DNA of 64,000 nt from positions 39,121 through 103,120 of the forward strand of contig JAUYJT010000061.1 of assembly GCA_030700225.1 (NCBI GenBank), in the 5' to 3' direction. Positions 27,963-40,578 of this stretch are shown here, piece by piece. How positions within the stretch are numbered: the first letter of the stretch is position 1; every line of letters starts with the position of its first letter. The position numbers were made by a program, and so were the translations under genes. Under the pieces are notes generated by a model. That model was not told the DNA's origin, searched no databases, and saw only the letters and a program-made list of their open reading frames with translations. Origin of the DNA: Candidatus Nanopelagicales bacterium (GTDB taxonomy: Bacteria; Actinomycetota; Actinomycetes; S36-B12; GCA-2699445).

Positions 27963-29069
27963 ATGACCGAAGATCGGCGTGACAGTCGGCGGCAGGAACT
28001 GAAGGAAACGCCGATCACCGCATGGAACCGGGCGGCCGGAGCCAAGATGGCCGATTTCGCCGGATGGGCGATGCCGATTGAGTACCCGGCCGGCACGATC
28101 TCCGAGCATCGCGCGGTGCGCTCAGGCTGCGGACTGTTCGACGTCTCGCACATGGGAACCGTGCGGATCTCGGGGGGGCCGGCCGTTGCCCGGCTCAACG
28201 AGACCCTCACGAACGACTTGGCTGTTCTGGATGACGGACAAGTGCAGTACACGTTGCTGTGCGACGAGAACGGCGGCGTTGTCGACGACATGCTCGCGAC
28301 GCGCATGCGTGCCGATGAAGTGTTGCTTGTGCCAAATGCCTCCAACACCGCCGCTGTACTGGCTGTGCTGCGCGAGGCTCTTGGCGACGAGGCCGTGGTG
28401 GACGAGGGTGACGTTGCCGCGATTCTGGCGGTCCAAGGTCCCGCATCCCCGGGCGTTCTTGAGAGTCTTGGACTGCCCTCGCGGCACAGGTACTTGACGG
28501 TGGAGACGGCCAAGTTCGAGGGCGTCCCGGTGATCGTCTCCAGGACTGGCTACACCGGCGAAGTCGGATTCGAGATCTTCGTTCCGGTGGCAGCGGCAGC
28601 GAGGCTTTGGGAAAGCCTGATCCAGGTTCCCGCAGTGACCCCGGCTGGGCTTGGTGCTCGCGACACCTTGCGCACCGAGATGGGGTACCCGCTGCATGGA
28701 CACGAGCTGTCGGCATCCATCGGGCCGGTTGAGGCTGGCCTGGCGTGGGCCGTCGCGTGGGACAAGCCGCATTTCATCGGGGACGCTGAGCTTCGGCGGC
28801 AGCGGGCCGAGGGGCCGAAGCGGCGGCTGCGTGGCGTTCGCGTGACGGGGCGGGGCGTGCCCAGGCCGGGCATGGTCGTGCGGGAGGGCGGACGGGATAT
28901 CGGATTGCTGACCAGCGGCACGTTCTCGCCCACGCTCGGTACTGGTATTGGTCTGGCTCTGGTGGAGCCGGATGTTCCGCTGGACAGCGAAGTCGATGTC
29001 GACATCCGCGGCAAGTCCGTAGCTGGGCTGCTCGTGCGGCCGCCTTTCGTCGACTCGTCTCCGAAGTAG
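27963..29069 (+). CDS. gcvT: glycine cleavage system aminomethyltransferase T
   Basis: 368 aa. GWAMPIEY, GLFDVSHMG, SRTGYTGEVGFEI, GLGARDTLR. Confidence 0.93.
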   Translation: MTEDRRDSRRQELKETPITAWNRAAGAKMADFAGWAMPIEYPAGTISEHRAVRSGCGLFDVSHMGTVRISGGPAVARLNETLTNDLAVLDDGQVQYTLLCDENGGVVDDMLATRMRADEVLLVPNASNTAAVLAVLREALGDEAVVDEGDVAAILAVQGPASPGVLESLGLPSRHRYLTVETAKFEGVPVIVSRTGYTGEVGFEIFVPVAAAARLWESLIQVPAVTPAGLGARDTLRTEMGYPLHGHELSASIGPVEAGLAWAVAWDKPHFIGDAELRRQRAEGPKRRLRGVRVTGRGVPRPGMVVREGGRDIGLLTSGTFSPTLGTGIGLALVEPDVPLDSEVDVDIRGKSVAGLLVRPPFVDSSPK

Positions 29070-29080
29070 AGCGGGGTCTT
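28998..29080. repeat. direct repeat copy A (functional 3' end of gcvT plus 11 nt)
   Basis: 83 bp, 78/83 identical by manual alignment to 38992-39074. Covers the last 23 codons and stop of gcvT. Confidence 0.9.
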
Positions 29081-29141: not shown

Positions 29142-29599
29142 GAGTAGCTTGAAGCTGCTAAGTGGACGTCAAGTGGAAGGGATGGGCCGATCATGTCTCA
29201 GGAACAGATCGCAGTGCTTGTCACCAGGGTGAAGGAAGATGAGGTCTTCGCCGCGGCGCTTGCCGTCGCGACCGACGCGCAGGATGCGCAGCGGATCGCC
29301 TCGGAAGCTGGAATCGAAGTCAGCGCCGAGGAGCTTCTGACGTTGAAAGCTCAGGCGAGCGAGGACGTCTCGGACGCCGAACTTGAGGCTGCCTCCGGCG
29401 GACGTCGTTTCTCCACCCTCGACGTCTGCCCGCCAACGCAGCTGTGCACCTTCGGCTGGATTTGCGGATAGCGGATCCGCGCCACCGCCACTGTCTAGTG
29501 ACACGACGGCGTTTCCGGGGTGGCCGCCAGTGACGGTTGATGCGGCTATCGGTACTCACGGCTGGCCTTGGCACGAGCGTTTGGAGCGCGCTGGGCGAT
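29142..29599. repeat. tandem segmental duplication, copy 1 (lanA upstream region + leader; lanM 5' stub)
   Basis: 29142-29405 matches 29849-30112 (offset 707): the upstream 51 nt are identical and I counted about 17 substitutions in the 213-nt leader part. 29530-29599 matches 30187-30256 (69/70). The core-encoding stretch between them cannot be aligned. Confidence 0.9.
29193..29471 (+). CDS. class II lanthipeptide precursor with Nif11-type leader (LanA1), 92 aa
   Basis: The 70-aa leader MSQEQIAVLVTRVKEDEVFAAALAVATDAQDAQRIASEAGIEVSAEELLTLKAQASEDVSDAELEAASGG ends in a double-Gly. Core RRFSTLDVCPPTQLCTFGWICG (4 Ser/Thr, 3 Cys). GGAAGGGA lies ahead of the ATG. Confidence 0.85.
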   Translation: MSQEQIAVLVTRVKEDEVFAAALAVATDAQDAQRIASEAGIEVSAEELLTLKAQASEDVSDAELEAASGGRRFSTLDVCPPTQLCTFGWICG

Positions 29600-29848: not shown

Positions 29849-30256
29849 GAGTAGCTTGAAGCTGCTAAGTGGACGTCAAGTGGAAGGGATGGGCCGATCA
29901 TGTCTCAGGAACAGATCGCAGTGCTTGTCACCAGGCTGAAGGAAGATGAGGCCTTCGCCGCGGCGCTCGCCGTCGCGACCGACGTGGCCGACGCGCAGCG
30001 AATCGCCTCGGAAGCTGGAATCGAAGTCAGCGCTGACGAGTTTCTGACGTTGATCCCTCAGGCGAGCGAGGACGTCTCAGACGCCGAACTGGAGGCTGCC
30101 TCCGGCGGACGTACTGGACCCGACACCTGCCTTCCCGGGTCGATTCTGTGCACCATCCCCGTGGTTTGCTCATATCAATATCATCCGTGACGGTTGATGC
30201 GGCCATCGGTACTCACGGCTGGCCTTGGCACGAGCGTTTGGAGCGCGCTGGGCGAT
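29849..30256. repeat. tandem segmental duplication, copy 2
   Basis: See copy 1. Contains lanA2 and the authentic lanM start. Confidence 0.9.
29900..30190 (+). CDS. class II lanthipeptide precursor with Nif11-type leader (LanA2), 96 aa
   Basis: The leader is 62/70 identical to LanA1 and ends in AASGG. Core RTGPDTCLPGSILCTIPVVCSYQYHP (5 Ser/Thr, 3 Cys). Its stop overlaps the lanM GTG (GTGA). Confidence 0.85.
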   Translation: MSQEQIAVLVTRLKEDEAFAAALAVATDVADAQRIASEAGIEVSADEFLTLIPQASEDVSDAELEAASGGRTGPDTCLPGSILCTIPVVCSYQYHP

Positions 30257-33200
30257 CCGCTGTATCGACGCAGGCGGACCCTCGCGACGATGCCGAACAA
30301 CCTGAGGTGGTCGCGCAATGGCGGGCTTCGGTCGATCCAGACAACGCCGGATTGTTCGCTAAACGACTGGCTTGGGCAGGGTTGAGCAGCCGCGATGTGG
30401 CGCCGCTGCTGGTCTTGGATGCCGCTCCTCGGGCGGACGCGACCGACTGGTGGGCCGATCTGGAAGCCATGCGCGACGCTTGCCGCCGATCGCAGCAATC
30501 AGCCGGCGGTTCGAACCGCGTCGATCCGGTGGATCCGGGCATCCCGTTCGCGGCGCTCCTGGATCCACTAGTGCGGTGGAACTGGACCAAAGCTCGCCAG
30601 CGTAGTCCTGAACTGCGCGGCCTGGCCATCGGCGCGCAGGAATCGGCCCGAAGGGCGTTGCTGCAAGGGCTGTCCTCGCTGTGCTCACAGGCGCTCGCCG
30701 CTGACTTCGAGGACACCCGACCGATGGGCGCCACACTCTTGCTCAAGCTGGGTTCGCTCCCCGTGGGCCAGGAGCATCCCACAGCCGTCTATGACGAATG
30801 GTGTCGTCGCCACCTCGCTGACGGCCTCACCCGCATGCTCGGTCGCTTTCCGGTGCTGGGTCGCCTGGTCTCGGTTTCTTGCGCTCAGTGGAGCTCGAAC
30901 TTGGTCGCCATGATGCAACGGGTGGACGGCGATCGAGAACTGCTGCAAGCGCATTTCGGCATCCCCGGGCAGGAGCCGATATCCCAAGTGAAGTGGGGGC
31001 TCAGCGATCCCCATCGACGTGGTCGAAGCGTCGCCATCGTTCACTTCGGAGTCGGTGCGCAGCGGCGAAGCATTGTGTACAAGCCCAAGGACATGCGCAT
31101 TGAGGAACGGTTCCAGCAGCTCGTCAGACAAGTCGGGAACTGGCTTGACGACCCCGACTGGAAGTCACTTGCGGTTGTGGCCCGTGGAACGGAGTACGGG
31201 TACGCGGCGCTCGCGGAGCACCGGCACTGCGCCAACGACGACGAGTTGGCGATGTTCTATCGAAACACCGGTCGGCTACTTGCCCTGCTTCACCTGCTCG
31301 GGGCAACGGACGCCCACTTCGAGAACCTGATCGCCGACGGGACCTCACTGCACTTGATCGACGCGGAGACCTTGTTCCAGGGCGGGATGGTTGATCCGAT
31401 CGAACTCAACCCGGCATCGGCAGACCCGCCAGAGAGCGTGTTGGCCGCCTCAGTCCTTCGGGTAGGGCTGCTCCCGTGCTGGCTACTCGGCGGCAGCCCA
31501 ATGCGGGCCTACGACGTCAGCGCGCTGGGCATCAAATCCGTGGAAGGTCCGATGTCAATCCTGGGCTGGGCGCACGTCAACACCGACGACATGGTCTGGG
31601 CGAGAGTCGATTACCTTCCCGACCAACCTGGATCGCTGCCTGTTCCGGCGGGCGTTTCGAACCCCTTGGCCTCACATGTGGACGATGTGACTGCGGGCTT
31701 CGAGCAGGTGTACCGACTGGCCATGGTGCCCGAGTATCGCGAGAGTCTGGTTGCCTCAGTCGCGGCGTTCACCGGGGTTACGCGCCGGATCGTGCTGCGA
31801 GCTACCCGCGTGTACGCCAAGGTGCAGGAGAGCGCCTTGAGCGCCGAGGCGCTCGCCGATGCCAACTGTCGGGCATTCGCGCTGGAGAAACTGTCGCGCA
31901 ACAGTCTGTTGACCGATTCGAAGCGCGCTCAGTGGCAGGTGTTCCTGTCGGAGCTCTTCGACATGGAGAACCTAGACATCCCGTACTTCGAGTATCCGTT
32001 GGGTTCCGATGAGGTGATCTCGTCGACTGGGGCGATTCCCGGCTTACTCGCAGGCAACGAGATCAGCGAAGCGATCGAACGCATCAACAATCTGTCGGAC
32101 ACCGATAGGGCATGGCAGGTGCGACTGATCCGCGGTTCGATTCGGGCTCGCTACCACGCCATCAATCGCGTCGAAGAGCAGCCGCCGATAGTGGATGTCA
32201 CCGCGCCGGGCGATTCGAGTGCCATGACTGTCGGTGCGGTGGCTGACGGACTTCTGACTGGTCTGGCGGAGTCAATGATCGACGACGGCGCTTCGGACCG
32301 CTCGTGGCTCACATTGTCTCTGATCCCGGGCGCGGACAAAGTCAGGCTAGGCCTGATCGGTGATGGGCTGTATGACGGCCGTGCCGGGGTGGCCGCGTTT
32401 CAATTCCTGATGGCAGATCTCGGTCGCGATGGGGCAGTTCGGGCCGATGCAGAGTCCACTGTGGCGCCGGTGCTCCGGCGGCTGGACGACCCCGATCAGT
32501 ACACGCGATTCCGTTGCCTTCGCGATTTCGGCCTCGGCTGGGCAGGTCTGGGTGGGTTGCTCCGACTGTTCGACCTGCGTATGCGCAGCAGTGCTCCGGG
32601 CGACATGTTCGGTGCCCCCGAGGCAGTGAGTCGCTTGGTCTGCCAGGTGTCCGCGGACCTGATCGGGCGGGACCTCCACCGCGACCTGCTGGCGGGCGTC
32701 GCCGGGCTGATAGGTCCGATCGCCCGGATTCATCGCCGGACCCCCACTGAGCGGACGGCCTCCATCCTGCGGGCAGCAGCGGAGCACCTGATGTCGGAGC
32801 AGAGTGGTGATGGGGGCTGGCCGGTCGCTGACGCCAGAGCACCGCTCACTGGACTCGCGCACGGCGCTAGCGGCATGGGTATGGCACTGCTGGAAGCGGG
32901 GACGGTATTGGACGACGATCGGATTGTCGAAGCTGGCACCCGGGCGTTCACCTATGAACGCAGCGTCTTCGATGTCGGCGTCGGTAACTGGCCCGATTTC
33001 CGCGAGCACCCGGGTCGGGAACCAGGCGACTCGTCTTTCATGGTGGCGTGGTGTCACGGTGCTCCGGGCATCGGGCTGGCTCGCATGCGCGCGCTGCAAC
33101 TGCTCCCCGAACATCCGCAGGCCAGTGCGTGGGACGAGGAGTTGCGCCTGGCCATGGATACGACGGTGCGCAGTCCGATCGGAATGATGGACCACCTTTG

Positions 33201-33459
33201 CTGCGGATCCATGGGACGCGCGGCCGTGCTACGGGTCGCTGGGCGTTGGGCTCGAGAGCCAGAATGGGTGGGCGCCGCAGATGAGTTGACCTTCGACGTG
33301 ATCGCACGGGCACGCGTCAGGGGCCGCTTCACGCTGCAGCTCGACGATCCACGCACGGCCGCGACAACCGCACCGGGCCTGATGACAGGGGTCGCAGGAG
33401 TGGGGGCGCACTTGGCGAGCATGATGAGTGACGGTGATCTGTCCACTCTGCTGCTTTGA
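30187..33459 (+). CDS. lanM: class II lanthipeptide synthetase LanM (ProcM-like, CCG zinc-site variant)
   Basis: About 1090 aa. Dehydratase-domain motifs IVYKPKDMRIE, GATDAHFENLIADG, LHLIDAETLF. LanC-like cyclase motifs GLAHGASGMG, WCHGAPGIGLAR, DHLCCGSMGR. Start set at GTG 30187, where homology with the duplicated stub begins. An alternative GTG is at 30148. Confidence 0.9.
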   Translation: MTVDAAIGTHGWPWHERLERAGRSAVSTQADPRDDAEQPEVVAQWRASVDPDNAGLFAKRLAWAGLSSRDVAPLLVLDAAPRADATDWWADLEAMRDACRRSQQSAGGSNRVDPVDPGIPFAALLDPLVRWNWTKARQRSPELRGLAIGAQESARRALLQGLSSLCSQALAADFEDTRPMGATLLLKLGSLPVGQEHPTAVYDEWCRRHLADGLTRMLGRFPVLGRLVSVSCAQWSSNLVAMMQRVDGDRELLQAHFGIPGQEPISQVKWGLSDPHRRGRSVAIVHFGVGAQRRSIVYKPKDMRIEERFQQLVRQVGNWLDDPDWKSLAVVARGTEYGYAALAEHRHCANDDELAMFYRNTGRLLALLHLLGATDAHFENLIADGTSLHLIDAETLFQGGMVDPIELNPASADPPESVLAASVLRVGLLPCWLLGGSPMRAYDVSALGIKSVEGPMSILGWAHVNTDDMVWARVDYLPDQPGSLPVPAGVSNPLASHVDDVTAGFEQVYRLAMVPEYRESLVASVAAFTGVTRRIVLRATRVYAKVQESALSAEALADANCRAFALEKLSRNSLLTDSKRAQWQVFLSELFDMENLDIPYFEYPLGSDEVISSTGAIPGLLAGNEISEAIERINNLSDTDRAWQVRLIRGSIRARYHAINRVEEQPPIVDVTAPGDSSAMTVGAVADGLLTGLAESMIDDGASDRSWLTLSLIPGADKVRLGLIGDGLYDGRAGVAAFQFLMADLGRDGAVRADAESTVAPVLRRLDDPDQYTRFRCLRDFGLGWAGLGGLLRLFDLRMRSSAPGDMFGAPEAVSRLVCQVSADLIGRDLHRDLLAGVAGLIGPIARIHRRTPTERTASILRAAAEHLMSEQSGDGGWPVADARAPLTGLAHGASGMGMALLEAGTVLDDDRIVEAGTRAFTYERSVFDVGVGNWPDFREHPGREPGDSSFMVAWCHGAPGIGLARMRALQLLPEHPQASAWDEELRLAMDTTVRSPIGMMDHLCCGSMGRAAVLRVAGRWAREPEWVGAADELTFDVIARARVRGRFTLQLDDPRTAATTAPGLMTGVAGVGAHLASMMSDGDLSTLLL

Positions 33460-33465
33460 CTGCTC

Positions 33466-35967
33466 CTACAGCTGTTGGCGTTCGATGAGGTCGTGGAACG
33501 GTCCGGGTCTAGCCATGAGTTCGGCGAACTTGCCTTCGGCAACGACGACTCCGTCTGTGAGCATGACCACCAGATCGGCTTGTTCGATAGTGGACAAGCG
33601 GTGTGCCACAACCACGCGGGTGATGTTCAGTCGGTCCAGGTTGGCTACGACCGCAGCCTGGCTGACGTTGTCCAGCGCAGACGTAGCCTCGTCGAGAATC
33701 AGGATCCGGGGCTTGCCCGCCAGCGCGCGCGCCAGCAGGATTCGCTGGCGCTGGCCACCTGATACCGCACCGGTGCCTTCCACTACGACGGTCGCCAGTC
33801 CCATCGGCATGGCGCGCACATCTTCAGCCACTGCCGCGTCCGCTAGGGCCTGCCAGATTTGTGCCGCCGACAAGCCCCGGCCCAGGTCGACGTTCTCTCT
33901 GATGCTGCCGGGCATGAGGGCCGAGGACTGCATCACCGATCCGATCTGGCGACGCACGGACGAGCGATCGAGAGCCGACAGGTCGCGTCCGTCGAAGGAC
34001 ACGATTCCTGACTCCGGATTCTCCAACCCCAGCACGAGGCGCAGCAGTGTGCTCTTGCCGCAACCGGACGGTCCGACGATCGCCACGTGCGCCCCTGCTG
34101 GAATGGCGAAGCTGACACCCCGCAGCACCGGCGGAGTGTCGGGCCGGTAGGAGAACACCAGGTCGCGCAGGTCGATCGAACCAGCCAGTTGCGCGACCTC
34201 CTGGCCAGTGCCGGACTCGGGCTCAGCGCGCAGCACGGACCGGGCACGCTCAAGCACGGCCCGTGCGCTCAGACCCGCGCCGACCGATGCGACCGCAGCA
34301 GCAACCGCAGATGTCGCCGCCGTCAAGGCAGTCTGGGCGGTGACCAGGCTGCCCACACTTGTCCCTGCCGCAGCCGTGACTGCGAGCAGGACAGCTAGCC
34401 CCGCCGAAGGCCACAGCGCTCCGGTCATCTGTTGGGCCACAGTGAGTCGACGCTGGCGCACTTCGGTCGCCGTTGTGCGGGTCTGGGAAGTGGCCCACAG
34501 GGCGAAGGCGCGCCCGGTCGCGCCTGACACCCGCAGGCGGCTAACCCCGGCGATCAGGCCGAGCGTGACTGACTGGCTTTCCGTGCTCGCGTCGAGGACT
34601 TCCCGGGTCAGTCGCGCCGCGCGGCGCACGAGCAGCAGCTCGACGACGGCTCGTACAACCAGGAACGCCAGCAGTGCGGTCGCCAGCGACAAACTCGTCG
34701 TTGCCACACCAAGCATGGCGCCCACCACGGCGGAGATGTCCAGCAGGGAGGTAATGACCGAGTTCGACATGCTCATCGAGGCCGTGTCAACAGCGTTGGC
34801 GTCGGTCATGCGCGAGGCAACGGTGCGCTGGTTCTGCCACGACATTGGAAGGCGTATCAACCGATCCCAAACCGCGGTCGCCGTCACGGCCACTCCGCGG
34901 CCACGAATGCGCAACATGGCGTACAACCGCACGGCCCGAAGCGCCATATCGCCAGCGGCGAAAGCCACCAGGGCAACGCCGACGACCAGGAGCGTCGACC
35001 CGGTCTGGCTAGCCACGGTCGAGGTGAGCTGTCCGGCCACAATCGGGATGACGGCGGCCAGCACTCCCACGATCGCTGTCAGCATCGCGACCAGCCACAG
35101 ACTCTTCTTGCTGCCTCGCAAACCCAGGCGCACCAGGTCGCGGATCCGAGCCGGGCGATTCGGATCCAACAGGGGCTCGAAAAGAATCGCCTCGCGCGAC
35201 CACGGCGCAGCGGTGGCCGCGTCGAGGGCGGCGTGCAGGCCTAGGGTCGGCTCCCACACGTGGTAGGCACCCCTGCGCCAGACAGCCGCACCGTAAGTCG
35301 CCCGGTGGCGGTCCTGTAGCAACAGCGGGGGCCCCTCCTGACGCCACCAACCGGGCGTCAGTCCAACCCGCCGCACGGCCGCACCGGACGCGGCGGCCAG
35401 GGATGTGATCGTGTCGCGGCCGGTGATCTCAACGTCGGCGACGGCCCGGCGAAGGAGCAAAGGATTCGGCCGCAGCCCAATCTGTCGCGCCATGAATTCC
35501 ACTACCGCGACATCGTCGGGAAGATCACCGGAGGTGAGCAAATCCGGCTTCTGGCCCGGAACCGCCGCCGCCAGGCCCAGCAGGGCATCGTCGATCAATC
35601 GCTCATCGTGGCGCGCGGACAACCGCAGCAGGTCAGCCGCCGACAGGTTTCGGTCGTTTGCCGCGCTGAGCGCCTCGCGAGCCGATCGGGCCATCGCCTG
35701 CTCGGCAGCATCGTCCGTGGCGGAGACCGGCTCGACTTGCGTGCCCGGCAACCCAACGCCAACCAGGTCAGCCCCTTCCACCTGCGCGCCAGTCAGTTGG
35801 CTAGGGGGAGTGACCTCGCACACCGGGATGCGCCGACCCGGACCGGCATCCGTGCGGGGAACAACGAACACCACAACCGTCCCCGTCACAACCCGCACTG
35901 TCGTGCCGGGGGTCAAGTGCAGGATCTCCGTGGCGTCGAGGGTGTGACGGATGTCAGCGGTGTTCAC
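33466..35967 (-). CDS. bacteriocin-export ABC transporter, permease/ATPase with N-terminal cNMP-binding-like barrel (NHLP/Nif11 system 'ABC2' type)
   Basis: 833 aa. The N-terminal ~150 aa domain has no peptidase Cys. It is followed by a 6-TM permease, then Walker A GPSGCGKST, signature LSGGQRQR and Walker B LILDEATSALD. Confidence 0.8.
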   Translation of the reverse strand: MNTADIRHTLDATEILHLTPGTTVRVVTGTVVVFVVPRTDAGPGRRIPVCEVTPPSQLTGAQVEGADLVGVGLPGTQVEPVSATDDAAEQAMARSAREALSAANDRNLSAADLLRLSARHDERLIDDALLGLAAAVPGQKPDLLTSGDLPDDVAVVEFMARQIGLRPNPLLLRRAVADVEITGRDTITSLAAASGAAVRRVGLTPGWWRQEGPPLLLQDRHRATYGAAVWRRGAYHVWEPTLGLHAALDAATAAPWSREAILFEPLLDPNRPARIRDLVRLGLRGSKKSLWLVAMLTAIVGVLAAVIPIVAGQLTSTVASQTGSTLLVVGVALVAFAAGDMALRAVRLYAMLRIRGRGVAVTATAVWDRLIRLPMSWQNQRTVASRMTDANAVDTASMSMSNSVITSLLDISAVVGAMLGVATTSLSLATALLAFLVVRAVVELLLVRRAARLTREVLDASTESQSVTLGLIAGVSRLRVSGATGRAFALWATSQTRTTATEVRQRRLTVAQQMTGALWPSAGLAVLLAVTAAAGTSVGSLVTAQTALTAATSAVAAAVASVGAGLSARAVLERARSVLRAEPESGTGQEVAQLAGSIDLRDLVFSYRPDTPPVLRGVSFAIPAGAHVAIVGPSGCGKSTLLRLVLGLENPESGIVSFDGRDLSALDRSSVRRQIGSVMQSSALMPGSIRENVDLGRGLSAAQIWQALADAAVAEDVRAMPMGLATVVVEGTGAVSGGQRQRILLARALAGKPRILILDEATSALDNVSQAAVVANLDRLNITRVVVAHRLSTIEQADLVVMLTDGVVVAEGKFAELMARPGPFHDLIERQQL

Positions 35968-38126
35968 GCCATCACCAATCGTCGGTACGGGCCGTCCACC
36001 GCGACCAGGTCGACGTGACGCCCGCGCTGCACGACTTGACCCTTGTCGAGGACGATGATCTCGTCCGCGTCGCGCACCGTGGACAGCCGATGGGCAATGA
36101 TGAGACTCGACGCGCCTCTTCGTCGGATCGCGGCGTCGATGTGCGCCTCGGTTGCCGCGTCCAACGCCGAGGTGGCTTCATCCATGATCAGCAGGGCCGG
36201 GTTGCGCACCAGAGCGCGGGCGATCTCGAGCCTTTGCCGCTGTCCACCCGACAGGTCCCCGCCGCCCTCGCGCAGTTGCGCCTCGTAGGAACCCGGGCGG
36301 CGCGCGATCTCGTCGTGTAGGGCCGCGTCCTTGACTGCCTGAACGACGGCGGCGTCATCGATGGTGGGATCCCACAGGGTGATGTTGTCGCGGAAGGTGC
36401 CAGCGAAGATCACCGGATCTTGGTCGACTATTGCCATGTCGTGATGCAGGACCTCCTCCGGCCACCACTGGCGCGGCTTGCCGTCGACCATCACCGCCCC
36501 CTCCCACGGTTGATACAGCCCGATCACCAACCGCGCCACTGTCGACTTCCCGCACCCGCTGGGTCCAACCAGCGCCACGCGAGAACCAGGGGCGATGTGT
36601 AGGTCCAAATCGGTCAACAGAGGCGGCCGATTGCGGTCGTATCCAAAGACCAAACCATCCAGCCGCAGGTCTCCCACGACAAAGGCCGGCCGGGGCTCGC
36701 CGGATGCATCGACCTGAATGTCAGGCAGTTTGGTTTGCAGAACGTCGTCGATCTGATCGAGTTCGCCGGATAGCATCTCGGCTTGCTGGAACTGCGCGAC
36801 CACCATGGCCGCGGGTGCCAGTGCCAATCCCAGCAGCGTCTGTACAGCGACGAACCCGGCCAGCGTTAGCTGCCCTTTCGTGACGCCGAGGAGTCCGACA
36901 ACCGTTACCGCCGCATCCGCAACTGTGATCAGGAAGACGGGCAGCAGATCGATGCCGACCGTGCGCTCACCCAACTGCTGCAGTGCCGCCAGAAAGCGGT
37001 TATGGGCAGCCGTCCATCGAGCGCCGAGGTGGTCTTCGGCACCGGACGCCTTGATTACCTCGAGCTGACTCAAGGAGGTAACGGCAATCGTCGCGACCTC
37101 GGTCTGTTCTCTGACCATTCTCATGGCCAGAGTGCGTCGCCTTCTGGATGCTGACGCCATCGCCAAGACGACGAATGCGACGGCGGCGACAGCAACCGCC
37201 CCCGCCGGCGGGTAGGCGAAGACCATCAGCGCCACCGCGGTCGAGCTGCTGATGACTCCAACTACCATCGTGGAGAACATGGTGGACACGGTCGCGGCCA
37301 CCCGAGCCGGTTGGAGGGCTCTTTGCGCCAAGGCGCCAGCGCCTCGCATGGCGTGGAAGTTCGCCGGGAGGAGGAACAGGCGAGCGACCAGCTTGGACTG
37401 CAGAACCACTGACAACTTCGTAGCCAAACGCATTCCGACGGCGCCCTGCAGTCCGATCAGAGCGGCCTGCATCAGGGCTGCGAAGGCTAGCGCTGCGAGC
37501 AGACTCGGCACCTGCACCACCGGGCCGCCCTGAAGCCAATCCACGAACAGCCGGGCGATCCCCGGCACCAGAATCTGGGGAATAACCAGCAGCAGCCCCA
37601 GCAGCGCGATGAGGAGAACGCCGTCGCGGGATCCTGTGAGGTAGCTGGCGAGTCTCGAAACCAGCCGTGGAGGCCGACCGCCCCTGACGAACTCGGGGCC
37701 GGGCGTCATCTCCAACACGATCCCGGTGAACGACTCGTCGAATTCCTCGTCGCTGCAGGTGCGGTGGCCGAGCGCCGGATCGTTCAGATACCAGCCATCC
37801 GGTGACCACCCTTCCACCACGAGGAAATGGTCAAAGCGCCAGAAGACTATGGCGGGAAGCGTGCGGGTCTTCAGGGTCTCGGGCTGGCTGCGGCGAGCCA
37901 TAACCTCCATCCCATACTTCTGGGCGGCGATCTTGACCGCGAGGGCGTTGCTCCCGTCTCGGGAGATACCGCACGCATCGCGCAGCTCCTCCAGCGGCAC
38001 CCACTTTCCATAGTGGGCCAAGACGATGCCGAGCGACGCCGCACCGCACTCGGTGGCCTCCATCTGCAGGCGTGCCGGCGTCTTCTCACGGTGGCGCCTT
38101 GACGCCGCAGCAGTGCTGGTACTCAC
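35964..38126 (-). CDS. bacteriocin-export ABC transporter with N-terminal C39 peptidase domain (NHLP/Nif11 system 'ABC1' type; LanT-like)
   Basis: 720 aa. C39 residues are visible (QMEATECGAASLGIV Cys; FDHFLVVEG His; LNDPA Asp). GPSGCGKST, LSGGQRQR, LIMDEATSALD. ATGA overlap with the downstream ABC gene. Confidence 0.88.
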   Translation of the reverse strand: MSTSTAAASRRHREKTPARLQMEATECGAASLGIVLAHYGKWVPLEELRDACGISRDGSNALAVKIAAQKYGMEVMARRSQPETLKTRTLPAIVFWRFDHFLVVEGWSPDGWYLNDPALGHRTCSDEEFDESFTGIVLEMTPGPEFVRGGRPPRLVSRLASYLTGSRDGVLLIALLGLLLVIPQILVPGIARLFVDWLQGGPVVQVPSLLAALAFAALMQAALIGLQGAVGMRLATKLSVVLQSKLVARLFLLPANFHAMRGAGALAQRALQPARVAATVSTMFSTMVVGVISSSTAVALMVFAYPPAGAVAVAAVAFVVLAMASASRRRRTLAMRMVREQTEVATIAVTSLSQLEVIKASGAEDHLGARWTAAHNRFLAALQQLGERTVGIDLLPVFLITVADAAVTVVGLLGVTKGQLTLAGFVAVQTLLGLALAPAAMVVAQFQQAEMLSGELDQIDDVLQTKLPDIQVDASGEPRPAFVVGDLRLDGLVFGYDRNRPPLLTDLDLHIAPGSRVALVGPSGCGKSTVARLVIGLYQPWEGAVMVDGKPRQWWPEEVLHHDMAIVDQDPVIFAGTFRDNITLWDPTIDDAAVVQAVKDAALHDEIARRPGSYEAQLREGGGDLSGGQRQRLEIARALVRNPALLIMDEATSALDAATEAHIDAAIRRRGASSLIIAHRLSTVRDADEIIVLDKGQVVQRGRHVDLVAVDGPYRRLVMA

Positions 38127-38974
38127 TGCTTCCCCAGCAACTGCTCCAACAGGCTCCGCTCGCTGACCAGGATGACCCCCTCGAACTCGTCGCTGGACGG
38201 AGCGGGCTCGTCAAGCAGCACTTCGATGACAACCCGCGGCCCTGGCGGGGGATCAAGTGTTCCCATGCCTTCCTGAACTAGGGCGGGTGACAGCGCCGGA
38301 CTGCGATCGGGCCCGATCCGCCCGGCCAGCACAGGCCCGCCGCTAACGGACACGGTCACCGACTGACCCTCAACCACTTTTCCCGCCTCGTCCGGCAGCA
38401 CGGTGATCAGGCCGACGCGGCCGTCATCAACCTTCAGTGACACCTGCGCAAGCCATTCGCCGGTATGTATCGGAGCCCCGGGCGACGAAAGGTAGCCCAG
38501 CAGCGTTCCTTCGACTTGCGAAAACTGGGGCACGGCGCGTTTGCCCGCGATGACATCCGCAACCCGCTGGCCGACGGTGACGCGCTCACCAGGCTTGACG
38601 GCGAAACTGCCGAACTGCCCCTTCGCGCTGGAGGTGACAAGGCCGATGCCGTTGAGTCCGACGACCCGACCCGAACCCGACACGGTGACGTTGCGCGGGG
38701 TGATCGCCGTGTAGGCGATGGCGGCGCCGATCAGGATGACAGCCGAAACAACAAGCAGCCAGATGCGCAGAGACGTCACCGGCAGCAGCTGGTCGAGTCG
38801 GTTGCTGGACTCATTCGCCTCCAGCGCTGCGGTTCGGTAACTAACCGCGAGTGGAGACGACGATGGCGATGTTCGCGATTGCGGCGAAGGGGCTGTCTGA
38901 TCAGCCGGCTGATTCGTGATGAGAAACCTCCCTCTGGCTGGCTTGGCTATCCTCGCCCACAGTAACGCGATCAT
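38123..38974 (-). CDS. short HlyD-family / membrane-fusion-like secretion protein of the bacteriocin exporter
   Basis: YRTAALEANESSNRLDQLLPVTSLRIWLLVVSAVILIGAAIAY (N-terminal motif plus single TM as in NHLM-system HlyD proteins), then beta-barrel-like repeats (VKPGERVTVGQRVADV, VVEGQSVTV). Start trimmed to ATG (complement of 38972-38974). The 486-aa ORF runs antisense through the gcvT remnant and the next gene. Confidence 0.7.
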   Translation of the reverse strand: MIALLWARIAKPARGRFLITNQPADQTAPSPQSRTSPSSSPLAVSYRTAALEANESSNRLDQLLPVTSLRIWLLVVSAVILIGAAIAYTAITPRNVTVSGSGRVVGLNGIGLVTSSAKGQFGSFAVKPGERVTVGQRVADVIAGKRAVPQFSQVEGTLLGYLSSPGAPIHTGEWLAQVSLKVDDGRVGLITVLPDEAGKVVEGQSVTVSVSGGPVLAGRIGPDRSPALSPALVQEGMGTLDPPPGPRVVIEVLLDEPAPSSDEFEGVILVSERSLLEQLLGKQ

Positions 38975-38991
38975 GTCGGCAATGGCTGGGA

Positions 38992-39074
38992 GTCGACATC
39001 CGCGGCAAGGCCGTAGCCGGGCTGCTTGTGCGGCCGCCTTTCGTCGACTCGTCCCCGAAGTAGAGCGGAGTCTT
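38992..39074. repeat. direct repeat copy B = orphan gcvT 3' fragment (23 codons + stop, no upstream gene body)
   Basis: Would encode VDIRGKAVAGLLVRPPFVDSSPK*, against VDIRGKSVAGLLVRPPFVDSSPK* in gcvT. Homology starts abruptly at 38992. Confidence 0.9.
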
Positions 39075-39135
39075 CCCAGGTCGAGGATGGAAGCGGACTC
39101 GCGTACGCACGGGTTGGACGACTTCCTAGCCTCCC

Positions 39136-40578
39136 GTGTTACAGTCCGCCGTGGCTGTCGGCGCGGAGGAATCTCAGGGGCTCCAGCCCTCCGAGCCGGG
39201 CATCGAGTCGGCATGGCTGAACCGCCAGCGGGCTTGGCTTGAGAGCCGAGCGAACATCCTGGGTCTTGTCGGGTTTTGTTTCGCCGTCGGGATCGGACTG
39301 GCAAATCAGCTCGCGTTTGGATTCGCCGGAGATCTGGATCTGCTCGGTAGCGGCCTGACCCTGGCAGTGGCCGGCCTCGTCGCCGGGGCTGGTATCGCGG
39401 TCGCCCTGACTCGCCGCCTCGGCAGGTGGCATCTGGCGATCGCAGCGACGGCCTTCGGCACGACGATCGCGCCGGTGGTGTCGGCCATGGCGCACTCCGA
39501 GCGCGTCTTGCCACAGGCCATCGCTCTAAGCCTCGCCGCCTCAGGCGCAGTTCTCTGCGCGGGTGCGGCGAAGCCCGGCACAATCCGCTCGGTCGCGTTC
39601 TGGACTCTGGCCGCGATCATCTGGGTGAGCCTGGCGTTGGCTGTCGCGAACCTGCTCTTCGGGGGCGAGGCCGCGTTCCGCAACCACTACTACCCCAGAT
39701 ACAGCGAGTACCTGGGACTTCCGGTCCTGTCCGGCATCACGGGACATCAGAACACGTTGGGATTCATCGCGGCCATCGCTCTGCCGGTCCAGTGGGTTAT
39801 CGCGGACGGCAAGTCAGTGATCCGCCGCCGCCTGCGTGCCGAACCTCGAACGCTTCTGCTGGTAGCGCTCGGCCCGGTCGCGACCGCGATCGCGCTCCTG
39901 TGGTCCCAGAGCCGGACGTCGCTCGCGGCCGCCGTCCTTGGCTTGATCGTTGTCTCACTCCCGCTGCGTCGCCTGGCAGGCCGGACTTGGGCGTTCGCCT
40001 GGGCTGGGCTCCTCGCGGTGCTCGCACTCGGCCCGCTCGCGGTTGGTTTGGTCGGCATCACGACCTTCACCGGCCGCGTGGAGATGTGGACCTACGCGTT
40101 CGCGGACTTCCGCGCGAATCCACTCTTCGGCTACGGCTCAGCGTTCATGGGCAGGGACGGCTACTGGCGCGACAAGCCGACGTTCCCCGACCTATTCGGG
40201 GCCCACAACCAGCTCATGGAGATGCTGGGCCGCACCGGAATGATTGGGGCCATTTCGTTCACCGCTATGGCCGTCGTCCTCGCGGTGGCGGCATGGAAGG
40301 TGCACCAACGCGACGGGGGAGTCGCGGCGGCGATCATCGTCGTCTACGCGCTCATTGGCAGCCTGGAGACCCTGATTCCTCTAGCGCAAGCTCAGGCCGT
40401 TGGGCTGAGGGAGGTCTTCACCCCAATGATCCTGGCGCTGGGGTTGATCGCCTCGTCACTGGCGCTCGTCTCGCGTCGCGGGGATGGGAAGGACAATCAG
40501 GACGCGCCCGTCAGCCGGAACGCACCGCACGACGTCGGGCGGCCCGCGCGTAGAAGGCTCCCAGGACAGCCGTCGTGA
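39136..40578 (+). CDS. O-antigen ligase / polymerase-like (Wzy_C) integral membrane protein
   Basis: 480 aa, polytopic. LLWSQSRTSLAA and FGAHNQLMEMLGRTGMIG are typical of the O-antigen ligase family. Start uncertain. Confidence 0.65.
   Translation: MLQSAVAVGAEESQGLQPSEPGIESAWLNRQRAWLESRANILGLVGFCFAVGIGLANQLAFGFAGDLDLLGSGLTLAVAGLVAGAGIAVALTRRLGRWHLAIAATAFGTTIAPVVSAMAHSERVLPQAIALSLAASGAVLCAGAAKPGTIRSVAFWTLAAIIWVSLALAVANLLFGGEAAFRNHYYPRYSEYLGLPVLSGITGHQNTLGFIAAIALPVQWVIADGKSVIRRRLRAEPRTLLLVALGPVATAIALLWSQSRTSLAAAVLGLIVVSLPLRRLAGRTWAFAWAGLLAVLALGPLAVGLVGITTFTGRVEMWTYAFADFRANPLFGYGSAFMGRDGYWRDKPTFPDLFGAHNQLMEMLGRTGMIGAISFTAMAVVLAVAAWKVHQRDGGVAAAIIVVYALIGSLETLIPLAQAQAVGLREVFTPMILALGLIASSLALVSRRGDGKDNQDAPVSRNAPHDVGRPARRRLPGQPS

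Follow-up and report, generated by a model that had tools for sequence, protein, structure and literature searches.

The question raised by this locus is why a lanthipeptide synthetase resembling ProcM should be encoded in an actinobacterium rich in guanine and cytosine (GC), and whether the three cysteines at its cyclase zinc site have to do with the two precursor genes beside it. The locus lies in a stretch of 64,000 nucleotides from a Candidatus Nanopelagicales bacterium (GenBank assembly GCA_030700225.1, contig JAUYJT010000061.1, positions 39,121 to 103,120), hereafter the window, in which a class II lanthipeptide synthetase gene, lanM, follows two genes, lanA1 and lanA2, for precursors with Nif11-type leaders. 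The original prediction was that the LanM cyclase carries Cys-Cys-Gly (CCG) in place of the usual Cys-His-Gly (CHG), and that this fits one enzyme serving two dissimilar core peptides. We are highly confident that the gene encodes a predicted-working, ProcM-like LanM of the CCG branch in a freshwater-type actinobacterium, with an all-Cys site that was inherited and is not tied specifically to the presence of two substrates.

Zinc-ligand positions of the LanM cyclase

Pfam and NCBIfam matches place lanM at 30187..33459 (+), which gives 1090 aa from the GTG at 30187. The longest open reading frame (ORF) runs on the same strand from a GTG at 30148 to 33459 without an internal stop (1103 aa), and residue numbers here follow this longer frame. 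The GTG at 30187 is more likely to be the start as it overlaps the lanA2 stop codon as GTGA (30187-30190), and gene calls of 1090 aa are also found in databases (P0002 and P0239). The overlap suggests translational coupling of lanA2 and lanM. The protein scores 620.9 bits against TIGR03897, the NCBIfam family of type 2 lanthipeptide synthetases (cut-off 304), with Pfam matches to the dehydratase domain DUF4135 (PF13575) at residues 234-615 (1.6e-89) and to LANC_like (PF05147) at residues 739-1097 (4.5e-34).

When the nucleotides are read in the frame of the ORF at 30148-33459, TGC TGC GGA at 33199..33207 (+) encodes Cys1018-Cys1019-Gly1020 within ...PIGMMDHLCCGSMGRAAV..., which confirms the predicted CCG motif and puts Cys1019 at the position of the zinc-ligand His in CHG enzymes. 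To place the ligands we used LicM2 and the plant LanC-like protein 3t33 as structural references. In a phmmer comparison of LanM with all PDB chains, HLCCGSMG lies opposite SLCHGLIG of LicM2 (6st5). The pairing was repeated with the cyclase domain alone as query, and here ...iCHGisG of 3t33 also lies opposite HLCCGSMG; in both references WCHGAPG pairs with WCHGAPG. The CC pair thus does fall on the Cys-His zinc-ligand positions in the PDB-chain alignments, and the same is seen in a MAFFT alignment of 82 cyclase domains (the 76 rows of the larger tree described below plus six named picocyanobacterial proteins). In this alignment the columns of W968, C969, G971, C1018, G1020 and G1023 are invariant (82/82), and the C1019 column holds Cys in 60 and His in 22 domains, an exact match to their CCG and CHG labels. 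C1018, C1019 and G1020 are also invariant in a separate alignment of 14 sequences (A1) with 30-51% identity, which speaks against a chance occurrence of the motif. The three zinc-ligand columns are filled by C969, C1018 and C1019. A conserved His of the LanC fold, His905 (32860..32862, +) in the motif GLAHGASG, aligns with the SHG of LicM2 and is His in 80 of the 82 domains; we take its role to be acid/base.

Both structurally characterized LanM enzymes that we compared have the two-domain architecture of the window protein. LicM2 aligns over residues 230-1037 (E 8.5e-43), and CylM (PDB 5dzt) aligns over the dehydratase domain (E 1e-23) with nine catalytic residues matched. They differ from the window LanM at the third ligand, with CHG in the LicM2 alignment and with Cys875, Cys911 and His912, a C...CH pattern in place of a third Cys, reported for CylM (PMC4550811). 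The same paper lists D252, H254, K274, D347, H349, N352, D364, R506 and T512 of CylM as needed for phosphorylation or phosphate elimination. These correspond here to D287, H289, K312, D388, H390, N393, D405, R547 and T553 (phmmer alignment, counted by hand), all of which are invariant in alignment A1.

The first zinc-ligand position, Cys969 (33052-33054), lies in a WCHGAPG motif at 33049..33069 (+), within AWCHGAPGIG at residues 967-976. The description of WCHGAPGIG as canonical holds in that the motif is present, but its His is dispensable and other residues occur there in CCG LanMs. In a CCG subgroup, 15 of 145 scored representatives, WCHG is replaced by WCAG (P0017-P0020, P0053, L037, L042, L112-L115 and others), and N, S, T, G or K stands there in others. 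Because CCG LanMs with WCAG exist, the His after the first zinc-ligand Cys is not required. A full-length representative of 1108 aa, P0412, keeps HICCGSFG and lacks the WC.G of the first zinc ligand; judging from its sequence, it may be a cyclase-dead variant.

Distribution and ancestry of the CCG branch

Among the relatives of the window LanM we found CCG to be the rule. The best 120 homologs at 90% clustering comprise 119 with CCG, none with CHG and one partial record. A search of representatives, exhaustive over 1.84 billion, gave 3699 proteins at E <= 1e-30, and the best 150 of these 3699 at 50% identity divide into 147 CCG, 0 CHG and 3 partial sequences. The window genome itself contains two other full LanMs, at C32:3295-6504 (41% identity) and C11:39244-42333 (30%), both with CCG. 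Across 201 genomes of the same order, 22 contain a LanM relative (the window genome included). Their 28 loci yield 20 CCG loci (19 genes), no CHG and eight without the motif region. In 401 genomes of the phylum DUF4135 was detected in nine, again including the window genome; the other eight give 11 matches, with two CCG, six CHG and three that could not be scored. The six CHG genes sit in three large genomes with one genus code and the two CCG genes in two genomes with another family code.

The original prediction implied that CCG is rare outside cyanobacteria, which is overstated. We collected 80 loci from named genomes using patterns that did not cover the CCG/CHG position, and 53 of these have CCG, 19 CHG and eight no scorable motif. 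Actinomycetota, among them the cultured Mycolicibacterium hodleri, and many Cyanobacteriota contribute CCG loci, as do Acidobacteriota, Pseudomonadota (Roseovarius lutimaris and Rhizomicrobium), Planctomycetota, Chlamydiota, Bacteroidota, Nitrospinota, Spirochaetota and others. Published cases point the same way: CCG LanMs of alpha- and deltaproteobacteria are reported among BlastP matches for ProcM-like enzymes, as is CCG in 15 of 18 selected marine strains (both PMC8524650), and one is reported from the archaeon Halorussus (PMC10027976). A 2026 survey that deals with one actinobacterial LanM family gives CCG as absent from that family (PMC13509491). We found no published description of CCG or ProcM-like LanMs in Actinomycetota or Nanopelagicales, although the primary motif papers and the supplements of PMC8524650 and PMC10783134 may list some. 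The closest enzymes, from metagenome-assembled genomes (MAGs) of Candidatus Nanopelagicales and Actinomycetes (such as P0002, L022 and L027), are 45-97% identical with the same domains and the same HLCCG motif, and Nif11 precursors lie near several of them, as in the window. They are annotated just as 'type 2 lanthipeptide synthetase LanM', and we found no account of their zinc motif or products in the literature.

Ancestry was assessed with full-length proteins. ORFs shorter than 900 aa (L026, L036, L075, L090 and L089) and eight loci without a detectable motif were excluded from the trees, and two CHG rows (L013 and L018, motif TWCHGDLG) were left out of them and counted as CHG in the leader census below. 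As inferred with FastTree from 76 rows, a single branch with support of 100 splits 54 CCG from 22 CHG enzymes. Quick IQ-TREE runs (LG+G4) on 49 rows and on 51 rows, the latter including six added named picocyanobacterial proteins, recover the same single CCG/CHG change with a support of 92 in the SH-like approximate likelihood ratio test (SH-aLRT). The codons for Cys (TGY) and His (CAY) differ in two of their bases, which fits one change on the trees.

In both the FastTree and the IQ-TREE analyses the window enzyme is on the CCG side, near the Prochlorococcus and Synechococcus enzymes, so that its predicted ProcM-like placement stands. Its closest partner in the tree is a MAG protein labelled 'uncultured Actinomycetes' (47% identity), followed by a Nanopelagicales MAG, all inside an eight-row Actinomycetota subclade (support 99) that also includes the paralog on contig C32. 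This subclade is sister (support 100) to a 14-row clade that holds the picocyanobacterial LanMs, namely a Prochlorococcus multispecies LanM record, Prochlorococcus MIT1201 and Synechococcus UW179A, NOUM97013, WH8101 and UW105, together with other Synechococcus and Cyanobium loci, Pseudanabaena, Roseovarius lutimaris and a Mycolicibacterium hodleri/Actinomycetota pair. The enzyme of Synechococcus UW179A is SyncWM (PMC12328550). Within this clade the CCG LanM of the cultured alphaproteobacterium Roseovarius lutimaris DSM 28463 (L045), which has a Nif11 precursor adjacent, is nested among enzymes from marine Prochlorococcus, Synechococcus and Cyanobium, and it is likely to reflect transfer between marine phyla.

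We also surveyed the locus flanks with a leader profile built by iteration from the lanA1 and lanA2 products. It detected one or more Nif11-leader ORFs in the flanks of 34 of 54 CCG loci vs 0 of 24 CHG loci. According to PMC10027976, N11P precursors go with CCG LanMs only, and the census agrees. Taken together, the sequences indicate that the all-Cys site comes from the common ancestor of the whole CCG branch, was not acquired in this lineage, and goes with Nif11 leaders.

Several points weigh against this interpretation. Twenty of the 54 CCG loci have no Nif11 ORF in the flanks searched, and these flanks were unequal (1.5 kb for loci from genome searches and up to 4 kb for others). Because relatives are not independent, the 34-to-0 contrast overstates the association. 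The trees are unrooted and come from quick methods without bootstraps, with the CCG/CHG branch in IQ-TREE at a support of 92 and not starred. ProcM (MIT9313), SyncM, HalM2, LctM and CylM stand outside the trees, where named Prochlorococcus and Synechococcus LanM records take their place. With either the whole protein or the cyclase domain as query, phmmer gave no alignment to the CylM cyclase domain or to NisC. All three transporter genes described below score under their curated NCBIfam cut-offs. Finally, zinc binding by Cys1019, the activity of the LanM and its ring pattern are properties that we infer.

Precursor number and the all-Cys site

The first precursor gene, lanA1 (29193..29471, +), encodes 92 aa with a leader ending in ...AELEAASGG and a 22-aa core containing three Cys and four Ser/Thr (Pfam Nif11 9.2e-08; TIGR03798 50.3 bits against a cut-off of 32.3). 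The second, lanA2 (29900..30190, +), encodes 96 aa with a 26-aa core containing three Cys and five Ser/Thr. Both exceed the cut-offs of PF07862 and TIGR03798. Their leaders are identical at 62 of 70 residues vs eight of 28 aligned positions in the cores, to which an LCT triplet is common. The three core Cys are in register (positions 9/15/21 and 7/14/20, with spacing of 6+6 and 7+6 residues). A repeat search identified the two genes as products of a 707-bp tandem duplication, which left behind lanA1 a dead stub, a 70-nt copy of the lanM 5' end (29530..29599, +) that is 99% identical to 30187-30256.

In an idea put forward for ProcM, a zinc site of three thiolates raises the reactivity of the bound substrate thiolate, which would speed up cyclisation and favour tolerance of many cores. 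The all-Cys site might then have been retained in the window LanM for a more reactive, less choosy cyclase that lets one enzyme handle two cores. We regard this explanation as unlikely, though it is the strongest of the alternatives. Published work ties CCG to promiscuity in ProcM, with 29 substrates, and in SyncM, with 79 (PMC10027976, PMC8524650, PMC10783134), the two window precursors with their diverged cores lie directly upstream of lanM, and a genome of the same order, G447, combines one detected LanM with eight Nif11-leader ORFs on seven contigs. However, CCG is present in all scorable relatives at any precursor number, including the C32 paralog with its one adjacent precursor, and the window genome has just three intact Nif11 precursors and one remnant for three full LanMs. 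Moreover, since the three-Cys spacing is kept in both cores, they may need one ring pattern. CHG enzymes, RosM, CylM and others, are also reported to process two different precursors (PMC10027976). The proposed fit between Cys-Cys-Cys and one enzyme for two dissimilar cores is therefore correct in that two diverged cores adjoin LanM, but the link is weak and was overstated. Promiscuity through three thiolates is compatible with the window data and is not needed to explain them.

The three intact precursors of the window genome (PF07862, TIGR03798 and phmmer) are the two in the cluster and one that follows the C32 LanM. The remnant, on the minus strand at C72:5119-5394, is a degenerate piece of a Nif11 leader (...EVSDQELESAAG...) that lacks both a proper start and a core with Cys, and is probably a dead precursor copy. 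One enzyme with tens of scattered precursors is not what this genome contains. With three precursors for three LanMs, the window LanM is assigned to the CCG branch by sequence and phylogeny and not to the prochlorosin-type combinatorial systems.

The window LanM shares with ProcM, SyncM and SyncWM its class, the CCG motif, Nif11-type leaders ending in Gly-Gly and export genes for an ABC transporter with a C39 peptidase, and named Prochlorococcus and Synechococcus LanMs (P0224, P0157, P0130 from UW179A, P0056, P0150 and P0170) form its sister clade. It differs in having just 33-35% identity to a named Synechococcus record, in its actinobacterial host, and in its two precursors directly beside the enzyme, where prochlorosin and synechococsin systems have tens scattered over the genome. 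The window genome also encodes three CCG LanMs, while ProcM- and SyncM-type genomes encode one. RosM, the roseocin enzyme of Streptomyces roseosporus, resembles the window LanM as an actinobacterial LanM with two precursors that have a conserved leader and diverse cores, but it has CHG and NHLP-type leaders (PMC10027976). The sampled actinobacterial LanMs of its motif class, CHG, fall on the opposite side of the tree from the window LanM.

Other members of the order show further precursor arrangements. TIGR03798 matches occur in 28 of the 201 genomes. In G447 (97% complete; L131-L138), the cores of the eight Nif11-leader ORFs are diverse and seven of the eight contain Cys plus Ser/Thr, a small prochlorosin-like layout in an actinobacterium. 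Separately, a near-invariant 24-aa core with three Cys, YTFP[PR]TDW[IV]YC[DA]NPWTN..C[ST]L[KR]C, follows Nif11 leaders beside the CCG LanMs of freshwater actinobacterial MAGs, in ten loci or more (L022, L023, L024, L042, L132, L133, L139, L145, L147 and L148). It looks like a conserved lanthipeptide family, in contrast with the variable window cores.

Host, cluster borders and export genes

The prediction that this ProcM-like enzyme belongs to a high-GC actinobacterium and not to a cyanobacterium is borne out. We found no Photo_RC or phycobilisome gene in the window assembly (2.62 Mb, 85 contigs, completeness 95.7%), using a search that was positive in the control, Synechococcus elongatus. The closest LanM record (97% identity) is from a Candidatus Nanopelagicales bacterium. 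At gcvT (27963-29069; GcvT assigned by Pfam), which borders the cluster, the named matches are all from Actinomycetota, with five Nanopelagicales plus Micrococcales, Pseudonocardiaceae and Desertihabitans at 51-62% identity. The missing photosystem and phycobilisome genes and the actinobacterial nearest LanM and GcvT records identify the host as an uncultured actinobacterium. We had also considered a high-GC picocyanobacterial host of the Cyanobium type (2.6-Mb genome, 65% GC, Nif11 leaders), which is ruled out by the absence of Photo_RC and phycobilisome genes and by the actinobacterial GcvT matches.

The gcvT 3' end recurs as an 83-nt direct repeat that brackets the cluster of about 10 kb, with copy 1 at 28998..29080 (+) on the left border and copy 2 at 38992..39074 (+), 94% identical to copy 1, on the right. 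This island-like bracketing, the patchy occurrence of LanM in the order (22 of 201 genomes) and the mostly picocyanobacterial sister clade could be taken to mean that recent horizontal import from a picocyanobacterium is the sole reason for a ProcM-like enzyme in an actinobacterium. We consider this very improbable, as the nearest relatives, with 41-56% identity, come from actinobacteria or freshwater MAGs in every case, no named cyanobacterial match exceeds 34% identity and the eight-row actinobacterial subclade is a deep group with strong support (99). Across the window GC stays between 63 and 67%, and the cluster, at 64-67%, equals its flanks without a dip. Given the actinobacterial nearest relatives, the deep subclade and the flank-like GC, any exchange between phyla would be ancient. 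Movement of the cluster among actinobacteria is likely.

That Cys1019 is no metal ligand, or that the enzyme is inactive and the motif a neutral relic or sequence error, is hardly credible even though members of the subclade are known from sequence alone, because hundreds of CCG-clade sequences have Cys here without exception, an independent MAG record (97% identical) has the same motif, a Cys-to-His codon change takes two base changes and the other catalytic residues checked are all intact.

We return, then, to an inherited all-Cys site in a predicted-working ProcM-like enzyme. The actinobacterial CCG LanM is a further member of a known ProcM-like kind and shares its motif with a large known branch. 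For the window the motif is what the lineage of the enzyme leads one to expect and has small significance in itself. More widely, the all-Cys zinc site is the mark of a LanM branch that spans many phyla and is very large, with at least 147 clusters at 50% identity, and in which uncultured freshwater actinobacteria have a distinct, unstudied LanM subclade beside the well-studied ProcM and SyncM. It is this sister subclade, in which some genomes have several precursors, that merits following up. Since ProcM-type enzymes serve for building lanthipeptide libraries (PMC10027976, PMC8524650), high-GC actinobacterial versions could be useful as extra scaffolds. They are also possible natural test cases for whether the third Cys, the host or the number of substrates sets cyclase reactivity.

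More tentatively, the freshwater planktonic Actinomycetota of this order may have their own deep sister lineage of ProcM-type enzymes, in which all scorable LanMs are all-Cys with Nif11 leaders and some genomes (G447) have a small prochlorosin-like combinatorial system; on balance we lean away from this broader proposal. If true, production of many peptides by one enzyme would be common to the oligotrophic plankton of two phyla and not a cyanobacterial speciality, and it would point to ancient exchange of the system between the two phyla.

From what is known of the family, the enzyme would work as follows. LanM would bind the lanA1 and lanA2 precursors, encoded immediately upstream, by their Nif11-type leaders, and its N-terminal kinase-like domain would phosphorylate Ser/Thr in the cores and eliminate the phosphate to give dehydro-residues. 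The C-terminal LanC-like domain would hold one zinc ion via Cys969, Cys1018 and Cys1019, and the zinc would activate the three core Cys for Michael addition to form up to three thioether rings per peptide. A convergent ABC transporter with a C39 peptidase, a second ABC subunit and a HlyD-like protein would then remove the leader after Gly-Gly and export the product.

These three export genes, convergent to lanM, have TIGR03796, TIGR03797 and TIGR03794 as their best families, which Haft et al. described as the export trio of NHLP/Nif11 systems (PMC2887384). An ABC transporter permease/ATPase without a peptidase domain is encoded at 33466..35967 (-) and matches the NHLP bacteriocin export subunit TIGR03797 with 552.3 bits (cut-off 709.4). 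Next to it, at 35964..38126 (-), is a LanT-type Peptidase-C39 ABC transporter (TIGR03796, 801.4 bits, cut-off 853.3) that has a clear Peptidase_C39 domain (4.7e-31) along with ABC_membrane and ABC_tran in Pfam, and is predicted to cleave the leader after Gly-Gly and to export the peptide. The third ORF, at 38123..39583 (-), is a probable HlyD-like secretion adaptor of uncertain start, with 37.4 bits against TIGR03794 (cut-off 156.2) and a weak Biotin_lipoyl match. This 486-aa ORF crosses repeat copy 2, its TIGR03794 match is confined to residues 259-344, and the true start of the gene is probably well downstream of 39583.

Elsewhere in the genome, an 872-aa ORF (L004:568-3183, equivalent to C32:6872-9487 of the window genome, G000) lies downstream of the C32 CCG LanM and its Nif11 precursor. 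It has a partial DUF4135 match, with the best stretch at profile positions 276-374, and no LanC domain, and appears to be either a cyclase-less protein of LanM type or a relic.

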